Source of the DNA: Escherichia phage LF82-9
Length of the DNA: 64,000 nt
Sequence record: PV660452
Direction: 5' to 3' (one strand)
The notes under the pieces were generated by a model that saw only the letters and a program-made list of their open reading frames with translations, was not told the origin of the DNA and ran no database searches. Both the position numbers and the translations under genes were made by a program. Below, piece by piece: positions 17,135 to 59,781 of the stretch (positions are counted from its first letter, which is position 1; the number at the start of each line of letters is the position of its first letter).

Positions 17135-17358
17135 TCTAGTTCCTTTGCTGCAAATAAGGCAGCATCCAATGAATCAAATTGGTCAACGAAATCAATATTC
17201 AACGCATCGTCAACCGTAGCATATAACCACCATTGTTTGAATTCGTATTCTAGAATAAATCCAGGACCTTCAATCTGAGGAAGACCTAGGCTATTTGTAC
17301 CAACTTCGTAACCAGCTAGACGCAGGTCATTAATCAAAGTTTCTGTTAATACGCTCAT
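17131..17358 (-). CDS. hypothetical protein
   Basis: 75-aa ORF. Confidence 0.45.
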   Translation of the reverse strand: MSVLTETLINDLRLAGYEVGTNSLGLPQIEGPGFILEYEFKQWWLYATVDDALNIDFVDQFDSLDAALFAAKELE

Positions 17359-17687
17359 TTTGCCGCCTTAACAATTTTCAGGTCAACGAATTTTTTCTTA
17401 CGTTGATTTTTCATACGACGGATAGTCTTTTCAGAGATTTCATGTTTCTGATAAGCTTTAGATTCAACACCAAATGCAGCAACGTCAAATTCAGAAAGAA
17501 TATATTGTACTAGAATTTCACGAATAGAATTACGTCCAATTTTCTGGTCGTGTTTTTGCATGATTTCATAAAGACGGAATTCCCACGCGTCAAGAACTTG
17601 AGGAGTAACAATACCACCTTTTTCTAGAAGACTAACAACTTTATCGAAAGCGAAAGAGTTCACTACGTTTTTGATTTTAGTAGACAT
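17355..17687 (-). CDS. hypothetical protein (start moved to second ATG)
   Basis: First ATG lies inside the promoter -10; second ATG at 17687 has AGAGGAAAA SD. Confidence 0.5.
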   Translation of the reverse strand: MSTKIKNVVNSFAFDKVVSLLEKGGIVTPQVLDAWEFRLYEIMQKHDQKIGRNSIREILVQYILSEFDVAAFGVESKAYQKHEISEKTIRRMKNQRKKKFVDLKIVKAAK

Positions 17688-17705
17688 ATTATTTTCCTCT
17701 GTTAT

Positions 17706-17750
17706 TTTATTATCCAACGAGAGCATTATACTCTGCTCTCAAGAGTTTGT
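17706..17750 (-). promoter_or_regulatory. early promoter with -10 inside a hairpin (copy A of a 45-bp repeat)
   Basis: Minus strand ACAAACTCTTGAGAGCAGAGTATAATGCTCTCGTTGGATAATAAA; near-identical copy at 47804..47850. Confidence 0.5.
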
Positions 17751-17753
17751 GCG

Positions 17754-17993
17754 TTATTTCGTGATAAGATAATGTAAATAGTTTGCTTGACGAACACTGA
17801 TATCAACACCCATATCAAAGATACCTTTATAGAACGGGTATTTGTTTTCAGTAGAATCTAGACTAAAAGCCTTTCCGCCACAACTAACGGTAATAGCATC
17901 AGTTAAAGTGTCATATACAAACTTAATAGTTGAGCCGTTCACTACAACTTCAAGACGTTTTTTCGATGTAATAATGTCTAATTCTTGTTCCAT
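17754..17993 (-). CDS. hypothetical protein
   Basis: 79-aa ORF. Confidence 0.45.
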   Translation of the reverse strand: MEQELDIITSKKRLEVVVNGSTIKFVYDTLTDAITVSCGGKAFSLDSTENKYPFYKGIFDMGVDISVRQANYLHYLITK

Positions 17994-18048
17994 GATATTC
18001 TCCTCAAATTGGTAGGAAGAAGTGTTATCTTCCTACCATCATAAACTA

Positions 18049-26305: not shown

Positions 26306-26330
26306 AATATTTTCCTCTCGTTAAGATAGA

Positions 26331-26363
26331 TTTATTATACTCCAACCATCCTTGGTTGTAAAC
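26331..26363 (-). promoter_or_regulatory. early promoter/stem-loop cassette (GTTTACA - hairpin - TATAAT)
   Basis: Minus strand GTTTACAACCAAGGATGGTTGGAGTATAATAAA. Confidence 0.5.
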
Positions 26364-26367
26364 CGTT

Positions 26368-27327
26368 TTATGATTTTAATGCATTCATTGCATTAAAAAG
26401 TTTAGAGTACTGCAACTGGAGATTCGTTACAACACTTTGAGCATCACGAAGCTTAGCTTGTGCTTTGTCAAGTTCAACGGACAGTTGGTCTGCAGTAGCC
26501 TTGATTTGGTTGTAATGATAATCTTCGGCCGGAAGAAGGTCATTAGAAACATTTAGTTTTACTGCCGACAGTTTGCACACATTTGGCAAACCTTTAAACA
26601 TACCGGGTTGTGTCGGAGAATATGCGCTTAGAACCTCTGCATTACCGACTGGTGTTGCTGTAATATTGCCTTCAAACAATGCATTTTCCTTTTTAAGATT
26701 TTGATAGTATTCAGAGTCTTTGTGCCACCATGGCGCAGGAACCTTTTTACCAATAGATACACGAGCCTGGATAGCGATATGGCCCTTATTCTTGATAGGG
26801 TCGATAATATTAAGCTCACGAGAATAAATTGCTTTAATTTGGTGAATATTATCACCTAACACTTCCAACGCTTGGTGGAATACACGAGCAACGTTATCGT
26901 TCTTAGGTTTATATGTAAGAGTGAACTCGTTCTCACTGATAACCATGATTTCTAACTTATCGTAAGTATATTTCAAATGTTTCATGTTAATTGCTTGAGG
27001 ACGAATACGAGAAGCAATGGCCATCAGATTGTTAAGGTTATTTCGGAACTGTTTAGCGAAATATTGTCCTTCACCGCCGATACAAAAATTACGAAGTTTC
27101 TGTTTGGCTAATAAACGGCTGAACTCACCATTTTTAATGAACTCTTTAACGGGTGTGTTAGTAATGCATTCAAATTGAGTAAACATACGAGAATTAATCC
27201 CATAATATGAACAGATTTCCTCAATCTCTTCAGGAGTCTTTACAGGCATACGGATAGGATTAGGTCCTGGAGTATATGCGTTCGAGGTAAATTCTTTGAT
27301 AAGTTCTCTACGTGTAATAAAAGCCAT
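26368..27327 (-). CDS. hypothetical protein with C-terminal coiled coil
   Basis: 319-aa ORF. Confidence 0.5.
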   Translation of the reverse strand: MAFITRRELIKEFTSNAYTPGPNPIRMPVKTPEEIEEICSYYGINSRMFTQFECITNTPVKEFIKNGEFSRLLAKQKLRNFCIGGEGQYFAKQFRNNLNNLMAIASRIRPQAINMKHLKYTYDKLEIMVISENEFTLTYKPKNDNVARVFHQALEVLGDNIHQIKAIYSRELNIIDPIKNKGHIAIQARVSIGKKVPAPWWHKDSEYYQNLKKENALFEGNITATPVGNAEVLSAYSPTQPGMFKGLPNVCKLSAVKLNVSNDLLPAEDYHYNQIKATADQLSVELDKAQAKLRDAQSVVTNLQLQYSKLFNAMNALKS

Positions 27328-27350
27328 TTTATATTCCTCATGTTGAAAAA

Positions 27351-27383
27351 TTTATTATACTCCAACCATCCTTGGTTGTACAT
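27351..27383 (-). promoter_or_regulatory. early promoter/stem-loop cassette (near-identical copy of 26331..26363)
   Basis: TTTATTATACTCCAACCATCCTTGGTTGTA shared with 26331 copy. Confidence 0.5.
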
Positions 27384-28378
27384 CATTCCTTAAGAAGTTT
27401 TACTACTTGAATAAGATTAGCTCGTTCTGTTTTATTTTTACCGTTTAAGCCTGCTAATCGTGAGATTTCATCGTCAGTCTGTTGAATAGTTACATTAAGT
27501 TCGTTAATCAAAGCTTCAAAGTATTTGATTTGCTCAGCATGTTTTGATTCAAATTTCTGAACCGGAATAACGTCTTGGTTCAGTCCATCAATAAGGTCTT
27601 TAAGAGCATCTTCTTGGTTGATATCATATTCAACTTCCTTTATTTCTTCAACGAGCTCGTCTTTATATCTAACGTCTTTTAGTCCTGGTGCTGGTCCTGA
27701 AATCTCTTCTTTAAGAGTACAAACATACCCAATACGGTATCCAATGCCGTCTCGCTTGATATCAACTTCGTCGATAAATCCACAATGTTTAAGTCCAGAG
27801 CCGATTATGTCAAAATATCCTTGACGACGTCCTTCAAACGTTACACGAACTACTAAGACAGTTTTGCCACCGACCTTTTGAAGCTCACATTTATAAAAGT
27901 CCGTTGAACCTGAATAACGTGGATGAGTTTTAAAGTTCATCTGACGATCTAGGCCCATTTGTAAACGTGCTGTTACGGCCATAAAACGTGTTTGGTTCTC
28001 GTTAAGATGAGCAACAATCCATTTCAAAGGCATTTTACACTGTTCACGACCGAACAAATCAGTACGTCCTAGATTACGCAGGATGTTGTTAGAGTTAATC
28101 ATCGACAGAACGTTAAGTTTATTCAACGCGCTGAAGATTCCGTCAGCCATTGATTTTCCATAACCTTTACACGCTTTAATAAGTGCTCGCGGCAGATTAG
28201 TATAGATTTCAGACGGCATATGAAAATCAAATTTACTAGTCAGTAATTGATGAACTTGGATAGCAATTTGCTCATAATTAAGTGCTCTGCGATCGTTATG
28301 GTCTTTAAACCACACTTTAATCTGTGAAGCACATAAACCGTTAATTTCATGTTTTACCGCATCAGATGTAATGCTCAT
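27383..28378 (-). CDS. hypothetical protein with C-terminal coiled coil
   Basis: 331-aa ORF. Confidence 0.5.
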   Translation of the reverse strand: MSITSDAVKHEINGLCASQIKVWFKDHNDRRALNYEQIAIQVHQLLTSKFDFHMPSEIYTNLPRALIKACKGYGKSMADGIFSALNKLNVLSMINSNNILRNLGRTDLFGREQCKMPLKWIVAHLNENQTRFMAVTARLQMGLDRQMNFKTHPRYSGSTDFYKCELQKVGGKTVLVVRVTFEGRRQGYFDIIGSGLKHCGFIDEVDIKRDGIGYRIGYVCTLKEEISGPAPGLKDVRYKDELVEEIKEVEYDINQEDALKDLIDGLNQDVIPVQKFESKHAEQIKYFEALINELNVTIQQTDDEISRLAGLNGKNKTERANLIQVVKLLKE

Positions 28379-32735: not shown

Positions 32736-32861
32736 TTTACCATACTCGTTTCAATAAGATTCACTATGCCGTTTACCATGTTATAAGTAAACATCGGATA
32801 ATTGTATTGTACTACAACATAAGCGATAAGCAAAAGTTTCATTTTGTTCTCCGTTCGTTTT

Positions 32862-32900
32862 GGTAGGACTACTATAACATAGTCCTACCAAGATGTAAAC
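32862..32900 (-). promoter_or_regulatory. early promoter/stem-loop cassette
   Basis: GTTTACA N17 TATAGT with inverted repeat GGTAGGACTA/TAGTCCTACC. Confidence 0.45.
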
Positions 32901-33133
32901 TACCGATTGTGTTTTAAATGTTGATAAAGTTCTTCAACTTGTTTAGGGTCCAAAACAATTAGGTCATTTTCTTGGCGAAGATAAAGCCATCCCTTATCCC
33001 CAGGACCATTTTTACAAAACATCGCCACCATATCATCATCTTCAGCGCTTTCAGGTAAAAGTTCAAGCACACCGTCTTCAGATTTTCCAGTATAATCGTA
33101 AAGCATAATATCCTCACATAATCTCGTTAACAT
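32900..33133 (-). CDS. hypothetical protein
   Basis: 77-aa ORF. Confidence 0.4.
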   Translation of the reverse strand: MLTRLCEDIMLYDYTGKSEDGVLELLPESAEDDDMVAMFCKNGPGDKGWLYLRQENDLIVLDPKQVEELYQHLKHNR

Positions 33134-43690: not shown

Positions 43691-43710
43691 AATATTCTCC
43701 TCATGTTTTA

Positions 43711-43748
43711 ATAGGACTACTATAACATAGTCCTATAATTGTGTAAAC
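43711..43748 (-). promoter_or_regulatory. early promoter/stem-loop cassette
   Basis: GTTTACA N17 TATAGT with inverted repeat ATAGGACTA/TAGTCCTAT. Confidence 0.45.
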
Positions 43749-43760
43749 AGTTTTGTGAAA

Positions 43761-44997: not shown

Positions 44998-45004
44998 TTG
45001 TTTT

Positions 45005-45043
45005 GATAGGACTACTATAACATAGCCCTATCTTGTTGTAAAC
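45005..45043 (-). promoter_or_regulatory. early promoter/stem-loop cassette
   Basis: GTTTACA N17 TATAGT, sequence nearly identical to 43711 cassette. Confidence 0.45.
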
Positions 45044-45047
45044 TGTT

Positions 45048-45245
45048 TTAGCAAGAATAACTAGATGATACCCAGCCTTGAACAGTGATACTATTGTGGG
45101 ATAATGAGATCGCGTCCTGGAGATTCAGACCTGCGTTATCTTCAATCCATAATGTAACTTCTTCGCGTTCTTCTGTTGCAATTTGGAACAGGTTTTCCAG
45201 AGCAGCTACTGCCGTACGTACAGCACAATCTAATTCACGAGACAT
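45048..45245 (-). CDS. small protein, member of tandem paralog triplet (C-terminal WVSSSxxC)
   Basis: Ends QGWVSSSYSC; identical TAAGGAATCAT-ATG junction to neighbours. Confidence 0.5.
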   Translation of the reverse strand: MSRELDCAVRTAVAALENLFQIATEEREEVTLWIEDNAGLNLQDAISLSHNSITVQGWVSSSYSC

Positions 45246-45842: not shown

Positions 45843-46198
45843 TTTCTACATTCCTTAATAAAGTTTTCTATTGTTTCATTTTCACGTCTAGCTAGGAGTT
45901 CATTATAACTAATCATTTGAGAAGCGTAAACCTTTTTATTTTTCTTGTTATGGTTTATAAAATCGTAGTAAAAATAGACTACAGTACAAAATGATGCGAT
46001 GGATGCAAAGGCTTGAGTATATCGTAAGTCCTGCCATTGGTCTGTGAATCCACCGGTGTTCCCTATAAATCCTAACACAACTCCGTCAATAAGAAATCCA
46101 ACTAATCCAAAGGCAAATCCCATGCCAATACTCATAATAAAAATTAGAATGTTCTCACCGAGAGAAGGCCGTACGGTTAAGAGTTGAGGCTTTTGCAT
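45839..46198 (-). CDS. membrane protein
   Basis: Hydrophobic helices. Confidence 0.45.
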   Translation of the reverse strand: MQKPQLLTVRPSLGENILIFIMSIGMGFAFGLVGFLIDGVVLGFIGNTGGFTDQWQDLRYTQAFASIASFCTVVYFYYDFINHNKKNKKVYASQMISYNELLARRENETIENFIKECRK

Positions 46199-46572
46199 CT
46201 TATTTCCTTAACGAATTCCATAGCTTCTTCATATTCATACTTTTTAACAGCTTCAACATACTGAGCTTGGGCTTTTGCGCACTGAACTTTCCACTCGCGA
46301 ACTCGAGCTCTGTGATGACGGCCTTGGTGCCAATATCCTGCCCAATTAATAGGCATTAATAAAAACGGTACAATAAGTGGTGCGACGAACATTAATGAAA
46401 ACGCTGCATCAGACGTTATAACTTTATTGGAATCTAAAATAGCTCCTATAATCATAAAGATTAAAAATGCTAAAGCTAAAATAGGGCCAAATAGTACTTC
46501 GTTTGGGATTAATTTACGTTTGTATTCGTATGCCCAGGGCTTAATTGGCATGTACAGGGTTGGCTTTGACAT
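46177..46572 (-). CDS. membrane protein (start uncertain)
   Basis: Hydrophobic helices; internal ATGs at 46572/46551. Confidence 0.4.
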   Translation of the reverse strand: MSKPTLYMPIKPWAYEYKRKLIPNEVLFGPILALAFLIFMIIGAILDSNKVITSDAAFSLMFVAPLIVPFLLMPINWAGYWHQGRHHRARVREWKVQCAKAQAQYVEAVKKYEYEEAMEFVKEIRCKSLNS

Positions 46573-47137
46573 ATTCTCTACATTCCATAATAAATTGCTC
46601 AAGGATTAAATTGTTAGTGAAATTAGGACTAACAACCATAGTTTCATAAAGCGCATCAATAGCACTTAAAGCATCAACTCTTTTAAGCAAAGGCTTGCCT
46701 TCATACATAGTTTCAGAATCGATGATTAACGTAAAGTAATATTTTTTATTATCGACTAGAACTTCTGTATCGATATAAAACATATTAGACCTCAGAAGCT
46801 TATCTCTAAAACCATAATAATCTTCTGAACGTTCGCTGATATATTCCCATTCAGTGTTTAAACAACAAACAGACCATGTAGGAGCAACGAAATCAGTGAA
46901 TCTAATATCATGGTCTGCAACTAGTTTAGCAATAGCTCCGATATCATGAATCATAATACCTGGGGCTAATAAAGATTTTCGGCGATTTGCGTATTCAGTT
47001 GTCTCATAAGAAGCTGACCAGTACCATTTACGTCCAGTTGCAACATATCGTAATGAATCAACTAAAGACGTAGGTGGATTTACCTTATCTCGGAACTCTT
47101 CGAACATTGAGTCAATATCATTATTTTGGTTTCGCAT
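46541..47137 (-). CDS. hypothetical protein (ATG with AAAGGAG SD)
   Basis: MRNQNNDIDSMFEEF...; track start is TTG. Confidence 0.5.
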   Translation of the reverse strand: MRNQNNDIDSMFEEFRDKVNPPTSLVDSLRYVATGRKWYWSASYETTEYANRRKSLLAPGIMIHDIGAIAKLVADHDIRFTDFVAPTWSVCCLNTEWEYISERSEDYYGFRDKLLRSNMFYIDTEVLVDNKKYYFTLIIDSETMYEGKPLLKRVDALSAIDALYETMVVSPNFTNNLILEQFIMECREYVKANPVHAN

Positions 47138-47160
47138 GTTAACTCCTTTATTATCCAAAA

Positions 47161-47178
47161 GGAGGACCGGAGTCCTCC
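47161..47178 (-). terminator. intrinsic terminator hairpin
   Basis: GGAGGAC-TCCG-GTCCTCC followed by TTTT on minus strand. Confidence 0.45.
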
Positions 47179-47186
47179 GTATTATT

Positions 47187-47780
47187 TTATTTCAAAGAGT
47201 TAATATATTCTTGTACATCAGCAGAAGTGGTTTCGACACCGGCTGGAGTACCATTGAACGTTTCAACACGAGTCAGAGTGTCTTCGATATCAACCTTAGT
47301 CAGTGCAGCGATTTCAATTACATCATCGGCCGTAGAGATACCAAGGGCATTGGCTGCTCGAGTTTCACGAATGTATTCGAGTTTGATTGCCAGGTTCTGA
47401 CGAGCATCGTCAAGTTCAACCACCTTACGAGCAATTTCAATTCGCATAGCGGCATACCCGTCAGCTTTTGTATTAAGTTGTTCGGCAGTTCGACGATACA
47501 GAAGACCAAGCTTAGCATGCATGGTAACATCTTGTCCTTCAGCCAGGAGCTTACGAATTTCACGTTCCTTAGAAGCGGCTTGCTTGTTCTTTTCATTAAC
47601 AAGTTCGCGAATACGTTTTTCTTCATTAATAGATTTAACAGAAGCCGTTTTTAGTTCTTTGATCTGGGTAATCAACTTATCTGCAGCTGCGTTATACTGT
47701 TCTTCGACAGTCAGATTTTTAGCCATAGCAGTACCCAGTTTAGTGCGGATAAATTCAACAAGTTTCTTCAGTGTGTTCAT
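47187..47780 (-). CDS. coiled-coil protein (PspA-like appearance, unverified)
   Basis: [10 protein letters not shown]...; long heptad-like helical sequence. Confidence 0.5.
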
Positions 47781-47803
47781 ATTATTACCTTTCAATTGGT
47801 GGT

Positions 47804-47850
47804 TTATTATCCAATGAGAGCATTATACTCTGCTCTCAAGAGTTTGTAAA
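47804..47850 (-). promoter_or_regulatory. early promoter with -10 inside a hairpin (copy B of 45-bp repeat)
   Basis: TTTACAAACTCTTGAGAGCAGAGTATAATGCTCTCATTGGATAATAAA. Confidence 0.5.
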
Positions 47851-48078
47851 TTATTTTTTAATCAAATTGACATAAAACTTGGCGTCTTCGGGGTGCATGC
47901 CTTCGCAGTATTCTTCAACCATGAAATTCTTAACAGCTTCATAAGGACCACTCAGATTAAGCTCAGTTGTCCAAAACTTGGAATCTTGGACTGAATCGAT
48001 ACGAACTTCAGGATGACGATTGCGAATAACTTCTTCGGTGTATTCATAATCAACGACATCAATACTAACTTTAGCCAT
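47851..48078 (-). CDS. hypothetical protein
   Basis: 75-aa ORF. Confidence 0.45.
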   Translation of the reverse strand: MAKVSIDVVDYEYTEEVIRNRHPEVRIDSVQDSKFWTTELNLSGPYEAVKNFMVEEYCEGMHPEDAKFYVNLIKK

Positions 48079-48103
48079 TTTGTTTCTCCTCTTGATTTGA
48101 TGT

Positions 48104-48137
48104 GATTACTATAACATAAACGTACTTAGATGTAAAT
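48104..48137 (-). promoter_or_regulatory. early promoter cassette
   Basis: ATTTACA N17 TATAGT. Confidence 0.4.
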
Positions 48138-48290
48138 TATTTCAACGTCACCTTTAGCGGCTTTATAACCTTCAGCCCAAGATACAACAGAGTTTTTATC
48201 TGAGGATTCAAATTCAGGCATTGGACTTTCACCAATATTCACACAGTATGTTTCTTCATTTTCATCGAACCAAATAATTAAAGTAGTCAT
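48126..48290 (-). CDS. small acidic protein (54 aa), not in ORF track
   Basis: Hand translation MTTLIIWFDENEETYCVNIGESPMPEFESSDKNSVVSWAEGYKAAKGDVEIIYI; GGAGTAAACAAA SD. Confidence 0.4.
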   Translation of the reverse strand: MTTLIIWFDENEETYCVNIGESPMPEFESSDKNSVVSWAEGYKAAKGDVEIIYI

Positions 48291-48311
48291 TTTGTTTACT
48301 CCTTTGTAGTT

Positions 48312-48350
48312 GATAAGTCTATAGTATCACCATCCTTGGTGCTTGTACAC
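48312..48350 (-). promoter_or_regulatory. early promoter/stem-loop cassette
   Basis: TGTACA-type -35 with hairpin CACCAAGGATGGTG and -10 TACTAT. Confidence 0.35.
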
Positions 48351-48352
48351 AA

Positions 48353-48616
48353 TTATTTCATATTATTGAAATATTCTTCTGCGATTTCGTCGTTATCATG
48401 GTAAACTTTAGAAGACAGTTTAACATAACCTTCTGCCGTGAACATGTTAATCACAACCTTTACAGTATACCACTGACCGTCTTCATTACCCATTACTGCG
48501 TAAGTTTCAAACATCGGATGATCAGGACCAATAACTTTAATATCATTCACTGTACGACCGAAATCTTCTGAAACACATTTCATAAAGAAGTTGAACAGTT
48601 CGCCGTAATTATCCAT
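48353..48616 (-). CDS. hypothetical protein (ATG with GGAG SD)
   Basis: MDNYGELFNFFMKCV... Confidence 0.45.
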   Translation of the reverse strand: MDNYGELFNFFMKCVSEDFGRTVNDIKVIGPDHPMFETYAVMGNEDGQWYTVKVVINMFTAEGYVKLSSKVYHDNDEIAEEYFNNMK

Positions 48617-48650
48617 TTCATTCTCCAAATTGTTTTCTGTATCAGTAGTT

Positions 48651-48689
48651 GATAGTTGTATAGTACCATGGAAGAACAGGGATGTAAAC
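48651..48689 (-). promoter_or_regulatory. early promoter/stem-loop cassette
   Basis: GTTTACA N17 TACTAT. Confidence 0.45.
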
Positions 48690-48827
48690 AGTTTTGTGAA
48701 AAAATTTTTTAAAAAGTTTTAGGGAATTCTAGGGTCAGGAGGGACAATTAAAAGGTAGGATAATATATTATAAAGGGTATAAACTAAATGATGCCCAGAG
48801 AGGCCCGGAAAGGCCTAGATACCAAAA

Positions 48828-48851
48828 AGCCCCAACCTTTCGGCTGGGGCT
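48828..48851 (-). terminator. conserved terminator hairpin, copy 3 of 4
   Basis: AGCCCCAGCC-GAAA-GGTTGGGGCT then T5. Confidence 0.5.
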
Positions 48852-48858
48852 AAGAATG

Positions 48859-49332
48859 TTATATGATTTGTTTAGCAGACCAAATGCGGTCTTTAATAAT
48901 TTTTTGGATGTCTTCAACATATTCAAGAGAGTGAACATGTGGGTTATCTTTGAAACTATAAGCACGAGCTAGCTTTTGGCCTTCAGTTTTGATTATCAAA
49001 AGTTCTTTAAGAATTGCTTCATACCTAGAGATAATTCCTTTAGCAATATTTTTTTCTTGTGCTGCTTTAGGGTCAGCCTTAGGAGCAGGTTTACCTGAAG
49101 CCTTTGCAAAAGCAGCTCCAGTAGCAACTAAACTTTTCCAAGCCATACTAACTGCATTCCCTGTAAATCCTTCGGCTTTCATATCACGAGCAAATTGGAA
49201 TCGTGATTCATCGGAAGCATCTTTATAGGAATATTTACCCGCGGCAATGGCAGCTTTTGCAACAGCTTGAATTTCAGTGCTAGATGCTTCATTTAACACC
49301 GCTTCATTTAAAAATTGAGCATATGATTTCAT
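48859..49332 (-). CDS. internal protein-like with capsid-targeting N-terminus
   Basis: N-terminus MKSYAQFLNEA; Ala/Lys-rich. Confidence 0.55.
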   Translation of the reverse strand: MKSYAQFLNEAVLNEASSTEIQAVAKAAIAAGKYSYKDASDESRFQFARDMKAEGFTGNAVSMAWKSLVATGAAFAKASGKPAPKADPKAAQEKNIAKGIISRYEAILKELLIIKTEGQKLARAYSFKDNPHVHSLEYVEDIQKIIKDRIWSAKQII

Positions 49333-49368
49333 CTTATTTCCTGTTTTAATTCGTGGTTTTAATATACT

Positions 49369-49376
49369 TATTTATA
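49369..49376 (-). promoter_or_regulatory. late promoter TATAAATA
   Basis: Exact TATAAATA on minus strand 37 nt upstream of ATG at 49332. Confidence 0.45.
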
Positions 49377-49382
49377 CTAAAA

Positions 49383-49406
49383 AGCCCCAACCTTTCGGTC
49401 GGGGCT
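49383..49406 (-). terminator. conserved terminator hairpin, copy 4 of 4
   Basis: AGCCCCGACC-GAAA-GGTTGGGGCT then T5. Confidence 0.5.
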
Positions 49407-49458
49407 AAGCCTTGCGGCAACCTTGTCGGGGTTCCACCTGCTAAGGCAAGTGTTTGTA

Positions 49459-49549
49459 CGAAACGCCGGGATTCGAACCCGGTTATTAAGCAGTTGACGC
49501 TACTCAATATTTTTAAAAGGCCATATCTCGACCATATCCGAACGTTCCG
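49459..49549 (-). ncRNA. tRNA-like element / candidate small stable RNA (not a canonical tRNA)
   Basis: Perfect T-arm CCGGG-TTCGAAT-CCCGG and a 7-bp acceptor-like pairing 49543..49549 with 49459..49465, but 91 nt long and no canonical D/anticodon arms. Confidence 0.3.
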
Positions 49550-49693
49550 TCAAAAACGCTACTCGGCTTACGGCAAAGATATTTCCTCGAATCGATAATT
49601 CGGTGCGCCGTTTCTGCTGTGATGTAAGAGGGCATCAATAAACGCAAAGATTATTAACGCAATTCCTTACTCAGGGAACATCAGTCCGACGAC

Positions 49694-50248
49694 TTACCGG
49701 TAGCGACCCGGTTTCTCATTTGGTATTTCAAATTGTGTAGATTTAGTATCTAATTTTTTAACTATGGAACTTATGTCATGAAAGAAAAACCATTCACCAT
49801 TTATATGGTCCTGATTATAAATGCTGTGCATATATTTTTCAAGTTCTACTGCATCCTGGGAATATCTAAATGATACTATTTTAAAACTTTTAAACGGTGA
49901 AAATGTATTTGCTGTTATAACTCTAACATCAGGTTCTATACTTCTTCCTATTTTATAATAATTAGGATTTGTAGTATCTACCATTATGTATACGAAAGCC
50001 TGTCGATAGCTTTTTTCTATATCAAATTCATCTTTAAATTTCAAAAGATTTAGGGCGGCAGTCCTACAAAATACTTTCCATTTTGACAAGCGTTTGGCTT
50101 CAGTCATAGAAAAGAATTTTTTCTTATCTGTTATTTTAAGAAAAGCAACATTTTCAATTAGTTCTTGTGTTATTTCAAAATTACCATGGTATATTAATCC
50201 AGCTTTTATAGCCAAATTAATTTGGTCCCAGTCTACATCACTTCTCAT
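49694..50248 (-). CDS. T5orf172/GIY-YIG-like domain protein inside the tRNA region (candidate homing-endonuclease-like gene)
   Basis: Motif FVYIMVDTTNPNYYKIGRSIEPDVRV resembles VYxL..N...YKIG.T....R core; AT-rich ORF; sits where T4 has segB. Confidence 0.4.
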   Translation of the reverse strand: MRSDVDWDQINLAIKAGLIYHGNFEITQELIENVAFLKITDKKKFFSMTEAKRLSKWKVFCRTAALNLLKFKDEFDIEKSYRQAFVYIMVDTTNPNYYKIGRSIEPDVRVITANTFSPFKSFKIVSFRYSQDAVELEKYMHSIYNQDHINGEWFFFHDISSIVKKLDTKSTQFEIPNEKPGRYR

Positions 50249-50269
50249 AATATTATTCTCTCAATAATT

Positions 50270-50346
50270 TGGTCAGGGTGAAAGGATTCTAACCTTTAAC
50301 CTGCGGTTTAGAGGACCGCTACTCTATACAATTGAGTTACACCCCG
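50270..50346 (-). tRNA. tRNA-Arg (anticodon UCU)
   Basis: Hand-folded cloverleaf; T-loop TTAGAAT; anticodon loop CCTCTAA (C at position 33 atypical); CCA encoded. Confidence 0.6.
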
Positions 50347-50472
50347 TAATTAGTTCACAGCAATACCTACTCCAACAATCAAGATGTCTTCACACGAAAT
50401 TAAGAGAAGTGTGATCAGTTCAACCCCTATAATCGCGTCAAGTAGATATTAATGTGACAGTTGTCACAAGTT

Positions 50473-50547
50473 TGGCGGACATGCATGGATTCGAACCATG
50501 GACCAATTGATTAACAGTCAACTGCTCTACCACTGAGCTACACATCC
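50473..50547 (-). tRNA. tRNA-Asn (anticodon GUU)
   Basis: Cloverleaf with D-arm GCTCAGTGGTAGAGC, anticodon loop CTGTTAA, T-arm CATGGTTCGAATCCATG, CCA encoded. Confidence 0.7.
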
Positions 50548-50551
50548 AAAT

Positions 50552-50638
50552 TGGTGGGGAGTGGTGGAGTCGAACCACCCGAGTCGCAATGACAATGAAT
50601 TTACAGTCCACACCGCTACCTCTACGGGATAACTCCCC
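50552..50638 (-). tRNA. tRNA-Tyr (anticodon GUA), long variable arm
   Basis: Acceptor GGGGAGT/ACTCCCC, anticodon loop CTGTAAA, T-arm GGTGGTTCGACTCCACC. Confidence 0.6.
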
Positions 50639-50644
50639 TTAATT

Positions 50645-50719
50645 TGGTGGCCCTGGGTGGAATTGAACCACCATCTGGCGATTATGAGTCGCTTGCTTGA
50701 ACCTTCCAGCTACAGGGCC
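50645..50719 (-). tRNA. tRNA with CAU anticodon (Met or lysidine-modified Ile)
   Basis: Acceptor GGCCCTG/CAGGGCC, anticodon loop CTCATAA, T-loop TTCAATT. Confidence 0.6.
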
Positions 50720-50720
50720 T

Positions 50721-50796
50721 TGGTGCTGATTAACGGAATCGAACCGCCGACCTTCTCATTACAAGTGAGTTGCTCTACCTACTGAGCTAAATCAGC
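50721..50796 (-). tRNA. tRNA-Thr (anticodon UGU)
   Basis: Acceptor GCTGATT/AATCAGC, D-arm GCTCAGTAGGTAGAGC, anticodon loop CTTGTAA. Confidence 0.7.
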
Positions 50797-50801
50797 AAAA
50801 C

Positions 50802-50891
50802 TGGCGGAGGCGATAGGATTTGAACCTATGAGTCGCCGGAGCGACTGCCGGTTTTCAAGACCGGTGCATTAAACCACTCTGCCACGCCTCC
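50802..50891 (-). tRNA. tRNA-Ser (anticodon UGA), long variable arm
   Basis: Acceptor GGAGGCG/CGCCTCC, anticodon stem-loop CCGGT-CTTGAAA-ACCGG. Confidence 0.7.
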
Positions 50892-50893
50892 AG

Positions 50894-50967
50894 TCTCCAT
50901 ACAAGGATTTGAACCTTGGACCTCCTGATCCCAAATCAGGCGCTCTACCAAACTGAGCTACACGGAG
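50894..50967 (-). tRNA. tRNA-Pro (anticodon UGG)
   Basis: Acceptor CTCCGTG/TATGGAG, anticodon loop TTTGGGA, T-arm CAAGGTTCAAATCCTTG; CCA not encoded. Confidence 0.7.
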
Positions 50968-50977
50968 TAAATTAAAT

Positions 50978-51051
<74 letters not shown>

Positions 51052-51056
51052 AAATT

Positions 51057-51143
51057 TGGTGCGAGAAGTGGGACTCGAACCCACAAGGAAATCATTCCGC
51101 AGCATTTTAAGTGCTGTGCCTTTACCAATTTGACCATTCTCGC
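51057..51143 (-). tRNA. tRNA-Leu (anticodon UAA), long variable arm
   Basis: Acceptor GCGAGAA, anticodon loop CTTAAAA, T-arm GTGGGTTCGAGTCCCAC, CCA encoded. Confidence 0.75.
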
Positions 51144-51144
51144 G

Positions 51145-51217
51145 CTGGGAATAAAGGACTCGAACCTTTGCATCCTGGAATCAAAATCCAGTGCCTTACC
51201 AACTTGGCTAATTCCCA
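51145..51217 (-). tRNA. tRNA-Gln (anticodon UUG)
   Basis: Acceptor TGGGAAT/ATTCCCA, anticodon loop TTTTGAT, abuts tRNA-Leu with 1-nt spacer as in T4 Gln-Leu dimer. Confidence 0.75.
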
Positions 51218-51303
51218 ATTATTAACAAAGGCTCTCAAACAAGAACCCTTGATGATAGAGGGTATTAATCAGTGCGGTATAAGTTAATAATAACAAATAA
51301 TTC

Positions 51304-51819
51304 TTAAAGCAAATTAAACATCTTAACGGTCGGCAAAACAATTTCTTCTTCTATATAAGAGTATTTAACACTCTCAACTACACGCAAAAAATCATAATCA
51401 TAATACTCAGAAGCATTACCTAAAATATTAATAAGTCCTTCAAGCACTTTATTACCATTCACAAAGAATAAGTCAAATACACGTTCTTCATCTTCTTCAG
51501 ATTTATTACCAAGGTCAACTTCTATATCAAAGACCTTTTTAATGAATTCTGGATAAAGTTGGTCTGAGAACAGTCCTTCAACCAAGTATTCATAGATAAA
51601 AAGCGATTGCTCACTGAACGAAGCATTACCACAATAGTGATCAACTTTTGTGCTAGAATGACGGCTTTTAAACTTCTTTAAAAGATATTGGAATTGTAAG
51701 ATTTCATGCTCTTCTACACCAAACAATGTTTTGGTTTTATAGTTGTCACCGTCATTTTCCCATGTAGTTACATCAATCACATAACCCTGCGGAATTGTAG
51801 TACCTAAACAAATATTCAT
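51304..51819 (-). CDS. hypothetical protein
   Basis: 171-aa ORF. Confidence 0.5.
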   Translation of the reverse strand: MNICLGTTIPQGYVIDVTTWENDGDNYKTKTLFGVEEHEILQFQYLLKKFKSRHSSTKVDHYCGNASFSEQSLFIYEYLVEGLFSDQLYPEFIKKVFDIEVDLGNKSEEDEERVFDLFFVNGNKVLEGLINILGNASEYYDYDFLRVVESVKYSYIEEEIVLPTVKMFNLL

Positions 51820-52109
51820 TTGCTCACCATATTAATGTAAGTATATTCAATACATTCAAGACCCAAAGGATTCTTGAAAATATCATATTCAAGAGGACCT
51901 TTTTCCGTTTCAATAAAGAAATCAAAATTTACTGTATTAAATTTACGGTCTTCCTTCACTAATTTAACTTGAGAAGATGAACGGTCAACATAAACCTTTT
52001 CAACTTCAAAACACGTTAAAACGCCATAATCATCAATCAAGGCTTTAGCTGCTTCTTGATCATATTTATATCCATTTTCAATGGATGATACTTTTGCATA
52101 AAGAATCAT
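51816..52109 (-). CDS. hypothetical protein
   Basis: 97-aa ORF. Confidence 0.45.
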   Translation of the reverse strand: MILYAKVSSIENGYKYDQEAAKALIDDYGVLTCFEVEKVYVDRSSSQVKLVKEDRKFNTVNFDFFIETEKGPLEYDIFKNPLGLECIEYTYINMVSK

Positions 52110-52111
52110 TG

Positions 52112-52522
52112 TCAGCCTCTATCAACGATAGCATGAGTATGGGCATTTACGATTTGCCACCAGTCGAAACGATTGGAACCATAATCTGGTTTATTTTCAT
52201 TTTCTTTAATGATATCACGCAGCTTATCTTCTGTTTCAGCATACGCAATTAAATCATCATATCCACCGCAAGGATAATAATTATCACCTGCGAATAAAAG
52301 AAAATTTACCTTAGATGGATTTACGTAATAATGGTCTTTAGGATATTTAGTTCCTCTCCAATCAGTTACTTCAACATAACGGTAAGAAAATCCATTTTTA
52401 CTTTCAATCCAACTCCACGCTTCAAAAGGAGTATTAAAAACTTTATCAGGTATTAAATTACCTTCAAAATGAGAAGGATTTGCATAATCCCCAGCATAAA
52501 CATAATATTCGTTAATACTCAT
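52112..52522 (-). CDS. hypothetical protein
   Basis: 136-aa ORF. Confidence 0.5.
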   Translation of the reverse strand: MSINEYYVYAGDYANPSHFEGNLIPDKVFNTPFEAWSWIESKNGFSYRYVEVTDWRGTKYPKDHYYVNPSKVNFLLFAGDNYYPCGGYDDLIAYAETEDKLRDIIKENENKPDYGSNRFDWWQIVNAHTHAIVDRG

Positions 52523-52708
52523 TTATTCACCTTTAGAAATTTTATCCATAACGATAGTGATTAAACCAATTAAAAATGCTACTACAAGTGAAAAAACATT
52601 TTCTGCTGTAGTTAATAATCCGCATATAAATCCAACAAACATTGAAAAACTAAAAGCAGAAGCAGAAATTGCAATAGCAACATTTCGAATTAATTCACAG
52701 CGTTTCAT
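52523..52708 (-). CDS. small membrane protein
   Basis: 61 aa, hydrophobic. Confidence 0.45.
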   Translation of the reverse strand: MKRCELIRNVAIAISASAFSFSMFVGFICGLLTTAENVFSLVVAFLIGLITIVMDKISKGE

Positions 52709-52727
52709 TTTATTCTCCTCAGTAGTT

Positions 52728-52766
52728 GATAGGGTAATAGTATCACAACTAAAACCCTATGTAAAC
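52728..52766 (-). promoter_or_regulatory. early promoter/stem-loop cassette
   Basis: GTTTACA N17 with inverted repeat TAGGGT/ACCCTA around -10. Confidence 0.45.
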
Positions 52767-52784
52767 AACTTTGTGAAAAATTTA

Positions 52785-53072
52785 TTACAAAAGATTTTTA
52801 GCAATAATTTTAAGCTGAGCTACTGAAATATGCTTGGCTTTAAACAAAGCAGTTTCTTCAGCAGGGGAGATAACGATTGTAGCACCATCTTTCTTAGCGG
52901 ACCATCCATCACCAAGGTAAACAGTACCTTTGACTTCTTCTCCATCAACCAGGCTAATCATCGGTTTACCTTCACGTCCTTTGTTTGCTTTAATAACTTC
53001 GGAAGTAAGGGTCGCTTCGGTCAGAGTAGAAACGTTAGCATCAGGTGATATAAATTCTTTATAGGTTTTCAT
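52785..53072 (-). CDS. internal protein I-like (capsid-targeting N-terminus)
   Basis: N-terminus MKTYKEFIS; 95 aa; position upstream of 57B as T4 ipI. Confidence 0.6.
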   Translation of the reverse strand: MKTYKEFISPDANVSTLTEATLTSEVIKANKGREGKPMISLVDGEEVKGTVYLGDGWSAKKDGATIVISPAEETALFKAKHISVAQLKIIAKNLL

Positions 53073-53098
53073 TTTATTTCCTTGAGGTTGTTTATTTT

Positions 53099-53136
53099 AT
53101 AGGATGATAGTAACACACCATCATCCTTATGTAAAC
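53099..53136 (-). promoter_or_regulatory. early promoter/stem-loop cassette
   Basis: GTTTACA TAAGGATGATGGTGTGT TACTAT with inverted repeat GGATGAT/ATCATCC. Confidence 0.45.
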
Positions 53137-53149
53137 TGTTTTGTGAAAA

Positions 53150-53835
<686 letters not shown>

Positions 53836-53839
53836 TTTA

Positions 53840-54574
53840 TTACCTTAAGATTTTTTCAATTTTAGAATAAAGCTCTTCTAACGAGCCGTCGTTTGTAATA
53901 ACTAAGTCGCCTTCTTCAATAGGCAACCCAGCTTCTGTAATATGTTTATCAGTGGATTCCGTACCAGAGCGAACCACATGAATAACTGTAGCACCCATCG
54001 CTCTAGCGGTTTCCATTTCATGGACTTGTCGTGTATCGGTCACAACGTAGTAATCGAAATCACTTCCAATATAATCCATATAGTTTAATGCAAAAAGCTT
54101 AACCCAATACATACGGTCAAATAAATTAACGACAACATCCGTACCGAGGGCTTGCATAAGACGGCGGATCGACCATGTGTCGTTGATATTATTTATAGCT
54201 TCACGCAGGGCTTCATATGGTTTAATATCTAGATATGAATATCCACCTTCTAACGATGATAATACTTTAACATTATTAATTGGTAAATATTGACTTTGCA
54301 AATAAATTAGCGCTTCTTCCAATAATTCAATAACATCCAACTTATTGAGATTTAATGGTGTTTCACGGTCGTATCCAATGCCTTCAAAGTATTCGTATTT
54401 CAACTCTGTGAATACATCAGGATTTTCAGCATGTCTACGTCCCCAGGCTATTGCTAGAGCGTCTTTAATTGGATATGCTAATTGGTATTTTACGGATTTA
54501 AAGTTTGAATTGATGTAATCAGCAGTAGTGTCTTTACCACTACGTTTGATGCCACTTAAAAAGATTAGCTCCAT
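53840..54574 (-). CDS. 1: deoxynucleoside monophosphate kinase gp1
   Basis: MELIFLSGIKRSGKDTTADYI.. close to T4 gp1 P-loop. Confidence 0.93.
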   Translation of the reverse strand: MELIFLSGIKRSGKDTTADYINSNFKSVKYQLAYPIKDALAIAWGRRHAENPDVFTELKYEYFEGIGYDRETPLNLNKLDVIELLEEALIYLQSQYLPINNVKVLSSLEGGYSYLDIKPYEALREAINNINDTWSIRRLMQALGTDVVVNLFDRMYWVKLFALNYMDYIGSDFDYYVVTDTRQVHEMETARAMGATVIHVVRSGTESTDKHITEAGLPIEEGDLVITNDGSLEELYSKIEKILR

Positions 54575-54627
54575 AGGTTTTCCTCATATAATTTATAAGT
54601 GATTATAACATACGGAGCTAGAAGCGA

Positions 54628-55212
54628 TTAACGCAAGGAAGGGTGTCTAGAAATGGATTTAGATTCGGCTGCTTGACGAGGCTGTTGAGATACAATGACT
54701 TCGCCGTCTTTTTCTATCGTCATATACGCGTAGTGAATAGTTGCTACGCACGTAACGGCAGGATCAGAATCTTCAGTGTAACTAAATTCAATTTCGCTCA
54801 AATCAGAAATCCATGGTTTATAGAAATTTGCCGTCAAAACGACTTCAGTCTTATTGTTGTTTAAAATGTGCAAAGTAACAAACTCAGGACCATCGGCATG
54901 GGCTGTATTATGACCGGTTATATAGTTATTAGTGCTGAGCATCCATTTATACATGTTCATCCAGGACGTCATGTCTTCATCAACTATAAATCGTACAATA
55001 AAAGGGTCATATTCAAATGTAGTGCCTGCGCGCATTGCACGTCCTAACCCCATTGTGCCTGTCACAGTTTCAACAACAGGAATTCTCACACCTGGCAATG
55101 GTGCCGTTTGGGCATTGAGCACAAAACCTGAAGTTCGTGTACTATCTGGGATATCCACAACAAAGTTTGTTATATTTGTTTGGTTAAAAATCTGTCTCGT
55201 TGGACGAGTCAT
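54628..55212 (-). CDS. 3: tail completion/sheath stabiliser gp3
   Basis: MTRPTRQIFNQTNITNFVVDIPDSTRTSGFVLNAQTAPLPG similar to T4 gp3; ATG at 55212 with GAGGTG SD. Confidence 0.85.
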   Translation of the reverse strand: MTRPTRQIFNQTNITNFVVDIPDSTRTSGFVLNAQTAPLPGVRIPVVETVTGTMGLGRAMRAGTTFEYDPFIVRFIVDEDMTSWMNMYKWMLSTNNYITGHNTAHADGPEFVTLHILNNNKTEVVLTANFYKPWISDLSEIEFSYTEDSDPAVTCVATIHYAYMTIEKDGEVIVSQQPRQAAESKSISRHPSLR

Positions 55213-55314
55213 AAGCACCTCAAAAACGCTTTAATAAAAATACAGTATAATGGTTTTAGGTCTCTTCCATTAATCCGGTTCAACAGAATATCAGAAGAAC
55301 GGAAGAGAATAGAA

Positions 55315-56136
55315 TTAAGATTTCCAAACAGTATTCGCAGAGAAACGTTTTCCTTTTGACATAAATTGCTGAGTAGGTAACATGATTATGTTAGCCCAGT
55401 CTTTAGGAGCGATTTCTGTTATTGTTCCTCTAATGTGGCCTGGCAGGTATGCTTTAATCATTTTGTCAGCACCTTGAAATCCTTTCACCTTGCTCCAGTC
55501 TATCTTCAACTTTGTGTTATTAGTAATAGTAGTTGTGCTAGCATATTGCTTCAGCAATTCTTCAAGAAACTGTTGACGTGCTTTAGGTGGGATATAGTGC
55601 AAGTTTAACCCGTACATCAAATTATGTTTACCTAATCCTAAATAAATAATCAAAGGATATCGGTCCCAGTATGGCAGAGTATCTTTATGTTTAGCATCAT
55701 ACACGTAAGTATAAATTTTGCCTGGTGTAGGCTTGACTACTTTGTGACCTTTTACACTTTTCTTAATTGTTTCAACAAACCACTTAGATGATTTGTTGTT
55801 TACTGCTGCGCCTTCATTTCTAATCTTTTCTCGTATTGAACTGCGAAACGAGTTTATCATCAGAAGTTGTCGTTCTTGCTTATTGAGTTTATTTTTAGGT
55901 TTGGATTCAAGCGTTTCAATTTTCTGTGCAGTCTTAATAGATGATGCATATCTAGACATTGCAGATGTAAACGACGAGTATTTTATTCCTTTTGATTCTG
56001 CAAATGCTTTTGCAGTGATTCCTTTCTCTTTAGCTTTCTTGTATTCTAATCCTATCTCAATCCATTTTCTTTCATTCATAGACTGAGCAATCTTAGGGGC
56101 TTGTACGCCTTCAGATATAATTTGGAATATGCTCAT
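55315..56136 (-). CDS. 2: DNA end protector gp2
   Basis: 273 aa; synteny 3-2-4. Confidence 0.85.
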
Positions 56137-56138
56137 AA

Positions 56139-56588
56139 TTACCCCTTGTATCCGAGTTTCCTAAGTCCGTCTTCGGTTAGAACTCGAAATTTTATATTTC
56201 TCTTTTCTGCGACAGCAGAAGCAGCTTTCCATTTGTCGCAGTTCACAGACCAGGTGTATATTTCATTCATATAACGTTTCTTTGCTGCGGTCGTAAGATT
56301 TGCAGGCTTAATAGGTGGTTGAGTTTCTTTCTTTGGTTTTATTTCTACAAAGAACTCTTGACCTGATGCATCTTTCATCCATATGTCCATATAGTATCGA
56401 CGTTTCTTACCTTCAGCATTACAAAAATATGGAATTACGGCTGTTTCACTACCCCATGCAATAATTTCCGGATTTTTATCCAACCATTCGAAAAAGAATT
56501 TTTCCCAGTTTGAACGATACGTTATTTTGGTATGGTCTCCACGGTATTTTTTTAAATTTTTTGGGACCCATTTACCAGAGTAGGCCAT
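56139..56588 (-). CDS. 4: head completion protein gp4
   Basis: 149 aa; synteny. Confidence 0.85.
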
Positions 56589-56599
56589 GTTGTCCTCCT

Positions 56600-56607
56600 T
56601 ATAAATA
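56600..56607 (+). promoter_or_regulatory. late promoter TATAAATA for genes 53-5-6
   Basis: Exact TATAAATA on plus strand about 43 nt upstream of gene 53 start. Confidence 0.5.
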
Positions 56608-56614
56608 GTATTAT

Positions 56615-56622
56615 TATTTATA
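56615..56622 (-). promoter_or_regulatory. late promoter TATAAATA for gene 4 (divergent)
   Basis: Exact TATAAATA on minus strand about 27 nt upstream of gene 4 ATG. Confidence 0.5.
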
Positions 56623-56649
56623 CCAATTTAATATTGGAAGGAGACTATT

Positions 56650-57225
56650 TTGTTATTTACATTCTTCGACCCAATAGGATATAGTGCTAAAACAGTTGAT
56701 AAGAATGCACCTACTATTCCTATGACAGACATATTTCGTAACTATAAAGAGTACTTTAAACGTGTTGCTGCCAATTATAGATTACGTTCTTATTACATTA
56801 AAGGCTCTCCACGTCCTGAAGAACTAGCAAACATAATTTATGGCAACCCTCAATTATACTGGGTCCTTTTGATGTGTAATGATAACTATGATCCGTATTA
56901 TGGTTGGATTACATCTCAGGAAGCAGCGTATCAAGCGTCTATTCAGAAATATGCAAATGCTGGCGGAGACCAAATTCTTTACCATATTAACGAGAATCGT
57001 GAGAAATTTTACAATTTAGTTTCATACCCAGACGAGCCTTTAGTGTGGTATGATAAAGGTGATGAAGCTCGTAAGTATCCGCAATATAAAGGACCTTTAG
57101 CTGCAGTAGATACTTATGAAGCGGCAATATTAGATAATGAAAAACTTCGTAAAATAAAAATTGTTGCAAAAGAAGATATAAACTCGTTTATTACTGATTT
57201 GATTCGTGAGATGGAGATTGCATAA
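56650..57225 (+). CDS. 53: baseplate wedge protein gp53 (TTG start)
   Basis: MLFTFFDPIGYSAKTVDKNAPTIPMTDIFRNYK.. near-identical to T4 gp53; GGAAGGAG SD 6 nt before TTG. Confidence 0.93.
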   Translation: MLFTFFDPIGYSAKTVDKNAPTIPMTDIFRNYKEYFKRVAANYRLRSYYIKGSPRPEELANIIYGNPQLYWVLLMCNDNYDPYYGWITSQEAAYQASIQKYANAGGDQILYHINENREKFYNLVSYPDEPLVWYDKGDEARKYPQYKGPLAAVDTYEAAILDNEKLRKIKIVAKEDINSFITDLIREMEIA

Positions 57226-58958: not shown

Positions 58959-58961
58959 TAT

Positions 58962-59477: not shown

Positions 59478-59479
59478 AA

Positions 59480-59773: not shown

Positions 59774-59781
59774 GAATTAAA

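Follow-up and report, generated by a model that had tools for sequence, protein, structure and literature searches.

Two near-identical stretches lie 30.1 kb apart in the window (the whole 64,000-nucleotide stretch of Escherichia phage LF82-9, record PV660452, that was analysed), and our analysis indicates that both are very likely copies of one early promoter-hairpin cassette of the PeSL type, which takes part in recombination. Elements of this kind already have that name, PeSL (promoter-early stem-loop), in the literature. A specific role of the hairpin on read-through RNA is plausible, and we put it forward more tentatively. The window belongs to an RB69-like T4-type phage (Mosigvirus), and the genes around both copies are on the minus strand. 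Its closest complete genome is that of Escherichia phage LF82-1 (PV648359.1), with 99.8% identity over window positions 1-45931 and 52785-64000; from 45931 to 52785 the two diverge (81-97% in pieces, with gaps). We observed that this diverged part resembles a hyperplastic region and that several of its identity breaks fall at early-promoter -35s.

We aligned the two loci and found that positions 17707-17750 (copy A) and 47804-47847 (copy B) are identical at 43 of 44 positions, the single difference being a C/T position. A sequence-only reading of the window had described here a 45-bp promoter-hairpin element duplicated in front of unrelated genes; it placed both loci correctly, with ends that were off by 1-3 bases. 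When the window was searched with a degenerate 44-nt pattern, exactly two matches were returned, both on the plus strand and with 0 mismatches to the pattern, compared with a chance expectation of 0 matches from dinucleotide-preserving shuffles. A repeat search (family D11) extended the similarity to 78 nt at 81%, taking in a common AATAATATG around the start codon; except for this motif, identity falls sharply on both sides of the block. Each copy lies within a 66-70-nt gap separating two minus-strand genes, copy A between a homologue of RB69ORF075c and 55.2 (by RB69 annotation) and copy B between an Frd.3-like gene and e.6 (Table 1). The downstream proteins, 55.2 and e.6, gave no BLASTP alignment at E<=100, so the near-identical element does stand before unrelated genes, as had been claimed. 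No Pfam family was found for the ORF075c homologue or for the e.6 homologue.

Table 1. Positions of the two cassettes, their parts and the neighbouring genes (window coordinates)
Feature	Position	Strand	Description
Copy A cassette	17706..17753	-	-35 through leader TTGGATAATAAA; covariance model R1 17707-17753, 66.5 bits, E 3e-11
Copy A -35 CGCACA	17748..17753	-	3/6 to TTGACA; abuts upstream TAA stop 17756-17754
Copy A -10 TATAAT	17725..17730	-	in hairpin loop; overlapped by spurious first ATG 17726-17724
Copy A hairpin	17718..17741	-	5' arm 17741-17734 TGAGAGCA, loop 17733-17726, 3' arm 17725-17718 TGCTCTCG
55.2 homologue with SD	17355..17699	-	SD GAGGA 17699-17695, ATG 17687, 110 aa, DUF7570
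RB69ORF075c homologue, upstream of copy A	17754..17993	-	79 aa; absent from T4; 59% protein identity to RB69 allele
Second hairpin	18011..18037	-	GGTAGGAAGA-TAACACT-TCTTCCTACC; upstream of ORF075c homologue; left border of diverged cassette
Copy B cassette	47803..47850	-	-35 through conserved leader TTGGATAATAAA; covariance model R1 47804-47850, 75.3 bits, E 5e-13
Copy B -35 TTTACA	47845..47850	-	abuts frd.3-like TAA stop 47853-47851, in A-rich upstream tract
Copy B -10 TATAAT	47822..47827	-	17-nt spacer from -35
Copy B hairpin	47815..47838	-	5' arm 47838-47831 TGAGAGCA, loop 47830-47823, 3' arm 47822-47815 TGCTCTCA
e.6 homologue with SD	47187..47792	-	SD AAAGG 47792-47788, ATG 47780, 197 aa
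Frd.3-like gene, upstream of copy B	47851..48078	-	75 aa, Pfam Phage_FRD3

The TATAAT of each copy is read on the minus (coding) strand and appears as ATTATA on the plus strand. In both copies an 8-bp inverted repeat brackets this -10, which places it inside the loop of the hairpin TGAGAGCA-GAGTATAA-TGCTCTC(A/G), in agreement with the sequence-only reading. As RNA, this hairpin with its 8-nt loop GAGTATAA has a z of about -3.4: copy B forms 8 pairs (fold -12.6 kcal/mol, z -3.6) and copy A 7 pairs plus a U·G (fold -11.7 kcal/mol, z -3.3). For DNA, the predicted fold is about -7 kcal/mol whichever strand is taken (-7.2 on each in copy B). The single base that differs between the copies is the last of the hairpin 3' arm, a purine in both and 7 nt past the -10. 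Transcription of copy B is predicted to start there, at the A at 47815, and that of copy A would start at the G at 17718, from the usual 7-nt distance after the -10. An SD and ATG follow 30-35 nt past the hairpin in both copies.

The view of the element as a promoter with a hairpin was borne out by a consensus scan, in which copy B, TTTACA-17-TATAAT, scored 11/12 to the sigma-70 consensus, and by compensatory substitutions that keep the stem. Copy A retains the spacer and the -10, with CGCACA as its -35, and was not listed as a promoter by the sigma-70 consensus scan. With so poor a -35, copy A may be weak as a promoter or in decay, and it resembles the PeSLs that PMC4122927 calls 'degraded'. 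The A and B promoters probably differ in strength, because copy A has this -35 and a weaker A/T-rich upstream region.

Copy A also bears on where its gene begins. The open reading frame at 17355-17726 opens at an ATG inside TATAATG, and the second ATG has its GAGGA 8 nt upstream. That the second ATG is the real start had been proposed before, and it agrees with the length of RB69 55.2 and with the homologues in Marfa, Q7622 and L014, which start there. In LF82-1 (PV648359.1), the CDS 113352-113723, equivalent to window 17355-17726, starts at the ATG within the -10; this is probably an annotation error, the SD-bearing start 13 codons downstream being more likely.

We then built a covariance model, R1, from 16 variants of the element. 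R1 found exactly four members in LF82-1 and two in the window, all at 63-75 bits, and the next match scored 19 bits. The four LF82-1 copies precede 55.2 (A), e.6 (B), ndd (C) and a pseT-region gene (D). Copy C is identical to B over 35 nt and has TGTACA as its -35, and copy D has its stem changed to AGGAGCA/TGCTCCT. Thus the pair described earlier as a duplicated element does exist, as part of a four-copy family rather than as a single duplication. The element is also old and widespread in Tevenvirinae, well beyond a simple pair in one phage. A sensitive BLAST search with a 53-nt core matched 762 phage records, and family members were found in five genera at five loci. One member lies just upstream of T4 motB, and Yersinia phage fPS-90 has a near-identical site, which its annotation calls a 'predicted early promoter'. 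Others lie upstream of 55.2 in Klebsiella phage Marfa (Marfavirus) and a Kanagawavirus, upstream of e.6 in Tequatrovirus PhiZZ30, at the pseT-region site in a Dhakavirus, and in several IMG/VR contigs. From the IMG/VR pattern scan, three of 13 loci (L012, L016 and L020) were dropped as chance matches in coding sequence, without a -35 or hairpin. Upstream of motB, no member of the family was found in the Mosigvirus genome that was inspected.

These results make it extremely unlikely that the match is only the generic similarity of strong promoters, or a recent local duplication without function. T4-type early promoters do have an extended consensus in common (PMC2988021), and the window holds dozens of early promoters. 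However, the 43/44 block includes the whole spacer and 13 nt of the leader, which are outside the generic consensus, and the similarity is thus not confined to a generic -10. The wide gap in R1 score between the four copies (63-75 bits) and any other site (at most 19 bits), together with the 0 matches in shuffles and the stem covariation described below, likewise speaks against a generic match. The flanking genes are unrelated and the same family occupies the same loci in other genera, so the match is neither generic nor recent.

Conservation within the family was assessed in the 16-variant alignment. Almost no variation was seen at the -35, in the first half of the spacer, in the loop that holds the -10 or at the start of the leader; the stem varies while staying paired. 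Standard pairs are formed by 95.3% of stem cells, and 6 of the 8 pairs have changed on both sides among the 16 variants. None of 500 shuffles equalled the observed pairing or covariation, and in a control in which the 3' arm was slid by 1-3 columns, pairing fell to 33-56%. These results show selection on the hairpin. The Mosigvirus paralogues B and C have one stem in common and the orthologues in other genera carry other stems, a distribution that fits concerted evolution. Hairpins at this position are not confined to the family: the 67 minus-strand early-promoter matches of LF82-1 fold at -7.0 kcal/mol, compared with -4.0 kcal/mol for shuffles with the -10 fixed (Wilcoxon p 1.3e-5), and the 25 plus-strand look-alikes do not fold better than shuffles. 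Hairpins of -9 kcal/mol or better accompany 17 of the LF82-1 promoter matches, about 15 being at -12 or better. Their stem sequences are unrelated and their position is the same, as is also the case for the T4 e.6 and e.7 promoters.

Such a palindrome could in principle be an operator, at which a dimeric phage or host protein would shut the four promoters off together after the early phase. It overlaps the -10, the classical position for a repressor; four genes in one genome stand under the same sequence; and conservation outside the stem (ACAAACTCTTG, TGGAT) exceeds the needs of a promoter. Nevertheless, the stem varies freely as long as it remains complementary (GAGAGCA, AGGAGCA, GGGACCA, GAGGACA, GGGAGTA), and G·U pairs occur in it, a pattern characteristic of structured nucleic acid and not of a site that a protein recognises by its sequence. 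Unrelated stems, moreover, occupy the same position in other early promoters of the genome. We therefore regard an operator as very unlikely.

If the conserved structure is a nucleic-acid hairpin, the strand on which it pairs becomes informative. One-sided stem changes were found in 10 cells, all of which are G·U or U·G on the sense strand; the exceptions are 2 C·A cells, in two closely related copy-D sequences. Among the LF82-1 promoter hairpins, sense RNA folds at -14.6 kcal/mol and antisense RNA at -11.2 kcal/mol (p 0.001), with 26 and 8 G·U pairs, respectively, a comparison that is only suggestive because the copies compared are related. The G·U strand bias partly reflects these related copies and their common TG/-10 context, and the counts are not independent. 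With this proviso, the sense-strand wobble bias points to an RNA hairpin in read-through transcripts.

In a rival reading the inverted repeat acts in DNA, extruding as a cruciform when the phage DNA is supercoiled. In such a reading, the inverted repeat would tune promoter opening, or would be cut by endonuclease VII or gp46/47 and so form a recombination hot spot. Given the energetics of cruciforms, a stem of 8 bp closing a loop of 8 nt is short for extrusion, and this counts against it. The one-sided changes also tell against it, as the 10 sense-strand G·U cells, compared with 2 C·A cells, would be mismatches in the complementary-strand hairpin, and the sense strand folds systematically stronger than the antisense strand. 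On the other side, the palindrome is perfect over 7-8 bp, is centred on the -10 and folds equally on both DNA strands; indel and replacement junctions lie inside or beside such elements; and gp46/47 homologues are present in the window, as placed by collinearity with LF82-1. The authors who described PeSLs also speculate on a structure- or site-specific helper (PMC2839356). We consider the cruciform unlikely. Taken together, the strand comparison and the covariation favour a read-through RNA hairpin over a DNA cruciform or a protein operator.

Conservation outside the stem needs a separate comment, since the spacer and leader bases are also strongly conserved and the RNA-hairpin model leaves this unexplained. 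One reading that would take these bases in is that the hairpin is a conserved RNA signal on Tevenvirinae read-through transcripts (for processing, protection from decay or protein binding) rather than a terminator, and that the spacer ACAAACTCTTG and leader TGGATAATAAA mark a regulon under some factor, comprising 55.2, e.6, ndd, the pseT-region gene and, in T4, motB. We give this reading a low probability.

Two further identities were tried for the hairpin and rejected. It resembles intrinsic terminators in being a stable hairpin just past a stop codon that would form in the transcript of the upstream gene. In contrast to them, it has no U-tract (the following sequence is AUUGGAUAAUAAA), only 4 of its 8 stem pairs are G-C, and a terminator scan omits both elements, yet detects true terminators nearby; with no G/C-rich hairpin plus U run, the terminator reading was dropped. 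In T4 middle promoters, a MotA box (TGCTTtA) is centred at -30, about 12 bp upstream of the -10. With only 3 nt between the motif TGCTCTCA and the closest -10-like sequence downstream, GATAAT, and with TGGTCCT, TGTCCTC and TACTCCC in its place in family members, a MotA-box or middle-promoter reading of it was rejected as well. Searches of both loci against Rfam 15 gave chance-level matches of 13 and 18 bits, compared with gathering scores of 40 and 36.

Based on these results, we propose the following working of the cassette. Each copy would present, in order, an upstream stop, a host sigma-70 early promoter, a purine start 7 nt past the -10, the leader TTGGATAATAAA, an RBS and an ATG. Because the 3' arm ends at the predicted +1, the promoter's own transcript would be without the hairpin, and folding would be confined to RNA that reads through from the upstream gene; there, the hairpin would most likely attenuate read-through or stabilise the 3' end of the upstream message. 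As a result, each gene cassette would be expressed from its own promoter. The four copies would be held alike by selection together with non-crossover recombination (gene conversion), and their homology of about 45 bp would serve as the joint at which T4-type recombination swaps, inserts and deletes neighbouring small genes. That the promoter is active and where it starts are inferred from consensus, and how the hairpin acts on RNA and by what mechanism conversion takes place are likewise read from the sequence. A crossover between A and B, given the distance between them, would delete about 30 kb with many genes of replication and nucleotide metabolism, a loss that the phage presumably could not survive.

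Comparison with related phages gave the evidence for recombination at the element. In T4, 13 nt separate 55.3 from 55.2, and neither ORF075c nor such an element is found there. A hairpin element stands on each side of ORF075c in RB69-type phages. In the window, the upstream element is the second hairpin of Table 1, and a 71-nt piece around it, 18060-17990, has a fold of -19.3 kcal/mol. Where the window has this hairpin without a clear -10, a complete promoter-hairpin is present in RB69, and the window site looks like a decayed 'half' PeSL. Identity between the window and RB69 is 93% at the end of 55.3, drops to 40-73% across the ORF075c cassette, with 73% in ORF075c, and returns to 87-97% once the 3' arm of copy A is reached. 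The core of copy A in the window is that of copies B and C, not that of RB69 copy A (stem CGAGAGA/TCTCTCG), an indication that a conversion or exchange terminated within the element.

Similar junctions were found elsewhere. In the IMG/VR locus L017, an extra gene (an ORFan) and a different promoter stand between frd.3 and copy B, and the sequences part at the -35, ACAAAC. The element lies directly between 55.3 and 55.2 in L014, and in L018 it follows ndd.1 and precedes an extra gene ahead of ndd. Identity between the window and LF82-1 breaks at early-promoter -35s at 45931, 48358 and 52746-52785. At the first of these, about 240 bp (45931-46182) are absent from LF82-1 and complete an 88-aa predicted membrane ORF (MQKPQLLTVRPSLGENILIFIMSIGMGF...), and on its right this indel ends in the -35, GTTTACG, of a promoter at 45930-45902. 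The sequence-only reading had taken identical regulatory DNA before different genes to imply recombination or co-regulation; with cassette insertion and replacement junctions of relatives inside the element, both are likely, although the two stretches of regulatory DNA are not identical throughout.

The gene upstream of copy B drew a further observation. A Frd.3-family gene adjoins e.6 in the window and in RB69, and T4 has e.7 at that position. T4 frd.3 is presumably, going by its name, a member of the frd gene cluster. The Frd.3-family gene beside e.6 may be another small gene that has moved along with a promoter cassette. A comparison of the Frd.3-like protein with the LF82-1 gene at the native frd site gave no match from either query to the locus of the other.

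Other repeated elements were observed in the window. Four near-identical canonical intrinsic terminators (AGCCCCnnCCGAAAGGTTGGGGCTTTTT) lie on the minus strand at 33388-33361, 34011-33984, 48851-48824 and 49406-49379. They form a family separate from the promoter hairpins, with 10-bp G/C-rich stems plus TTTTT (48851-48824, 49406-49379), and one of them (49363-49406) coincides with a break in identity between the window and LF82-1. A larger early-promoter sub-family, GTTTACA-17-TATAGT, is found at 32859-32906, 43707-43754, 45002-45049, 48096-48143 and 53095-53142 (plus-strand coordinates, read on minus), with further LF82-1 copies at 147929, 139743, 128896, 70258, 69746 and 49710; stems of up to 12 bp, for example TAGGACTA/TAGTCCTA, enclose its -10. 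The promoters at 26322-26369 and 27341-27387 are 88% identical over 43 nt and carry a hairpin, CAACCA-AGGA-TGGTTG, in the spacer and not around the -10. The LF82-1 region that matches these two promoters has three tandem genes of about 320 aa, which may be paralogues.

A striking repeat is thus explained as ordinary regulatory grammar of T4-type phages, and the start of the 55.2 gene is corrected. RB69-type phages join the groups that carry PeSL cassettes; the available text of PMC2839356 does not mention them, and the searchable literature gave no PeSL link to RB69 or Mosigvirus. The compensatory stem change across genera and loci and the sense-strand wobble bias go beyond the available text of PMC2839356 and PMC4122927, and the available text of PMC4122927 makes no mention of the present sub-family or of covariation across genera. 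Such cassettes also matter to phage engineering, as naturally portable units of early expression and as natural recombination joints.

The T4 motB site (TTTACAAACTCTTGGGACCAGAGTATAATGGTCCCGTGGAG) is the member of the family to compare within T4. It has the -35, spacer frame, loop, -10 and leader start in common with the present copies, and two of its stem pairs have changed on both sides. It differs in locus, and T4 has a hairpin promoter of different sequence before e.6 and none before 55.2. A literature search for genome-wide T4 5'/3' end maps giving the start site of the motB element returned nothing usable.

The PeSLs of RB49 and phi1 (Arbiol et al. 2010, PMC2839356) are alike in their order of upstream stop in A/T-rich DNA, early promoter, stem-loop, SD and ATG. 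They are also alike in occurring many times per genome, among small variable genes and beside indels or replacements. Their stem-loops most often lie between the -35 and -10 or overlap the -10 (PMC2839356). They differ in that RB49/phi1 stems are often GGGG...CCCC with a near-perfect TTGACA-17-TATAAT (PMC2839356), compared with a GAGAGCA/TGCTCTC stem and a TTTACA -35 in the present family. Terminator activity and mini-circles were shown for a few of the RB49/phi1 elements (PMC2839356); the present ones are described from sequence. The 'effective terminator' result was obtained with one RB49-type PeSL stem-loop, from a family whose stems are often G/C-rich (PMC2839356), and it may not transfer to the present hairpin; because only that one stem-loop was assayed and there is no U-tract here, a terminator role is not to be assumed.

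The PeSLs of T4 and PST (Comeau et al. 2014, PMC4122927) were compared in promoter and stem. The T-even PeSL promoter consensus is TTTACW-N17-TAYWAT (PMC4122927), and the present elements are alike in consensus and in having short, variable stems with an A/G-rich 5' side (AGNA-loop-TCNT). A figure legend of that study places the stem-loops just upstream of the promoter (PMC4122927), whereas here the stem brackets the -10. This 8-bp stem covaries at 6 of its 8 pairs among the 16 variants; in the window, a TAA abuts the -35, and an SD and ATG lie downstream in both copies. The element recurs as four copies, many hairpin promoters occur in the window, and enrichment in variable regions was judged by eye. 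Indels accompany it in the L017 insertion, the ORF075c cassette and the LF82-1 breaks at promoters. PeSL cassettes of T4-like phages have been proposed to mediate gene shuffling and modular exchange (PMC2839356, PMC4122927), and those of T4/PST, like the elements described here, are tied to gene exchange, for example in the ndd region (PMC4122927).
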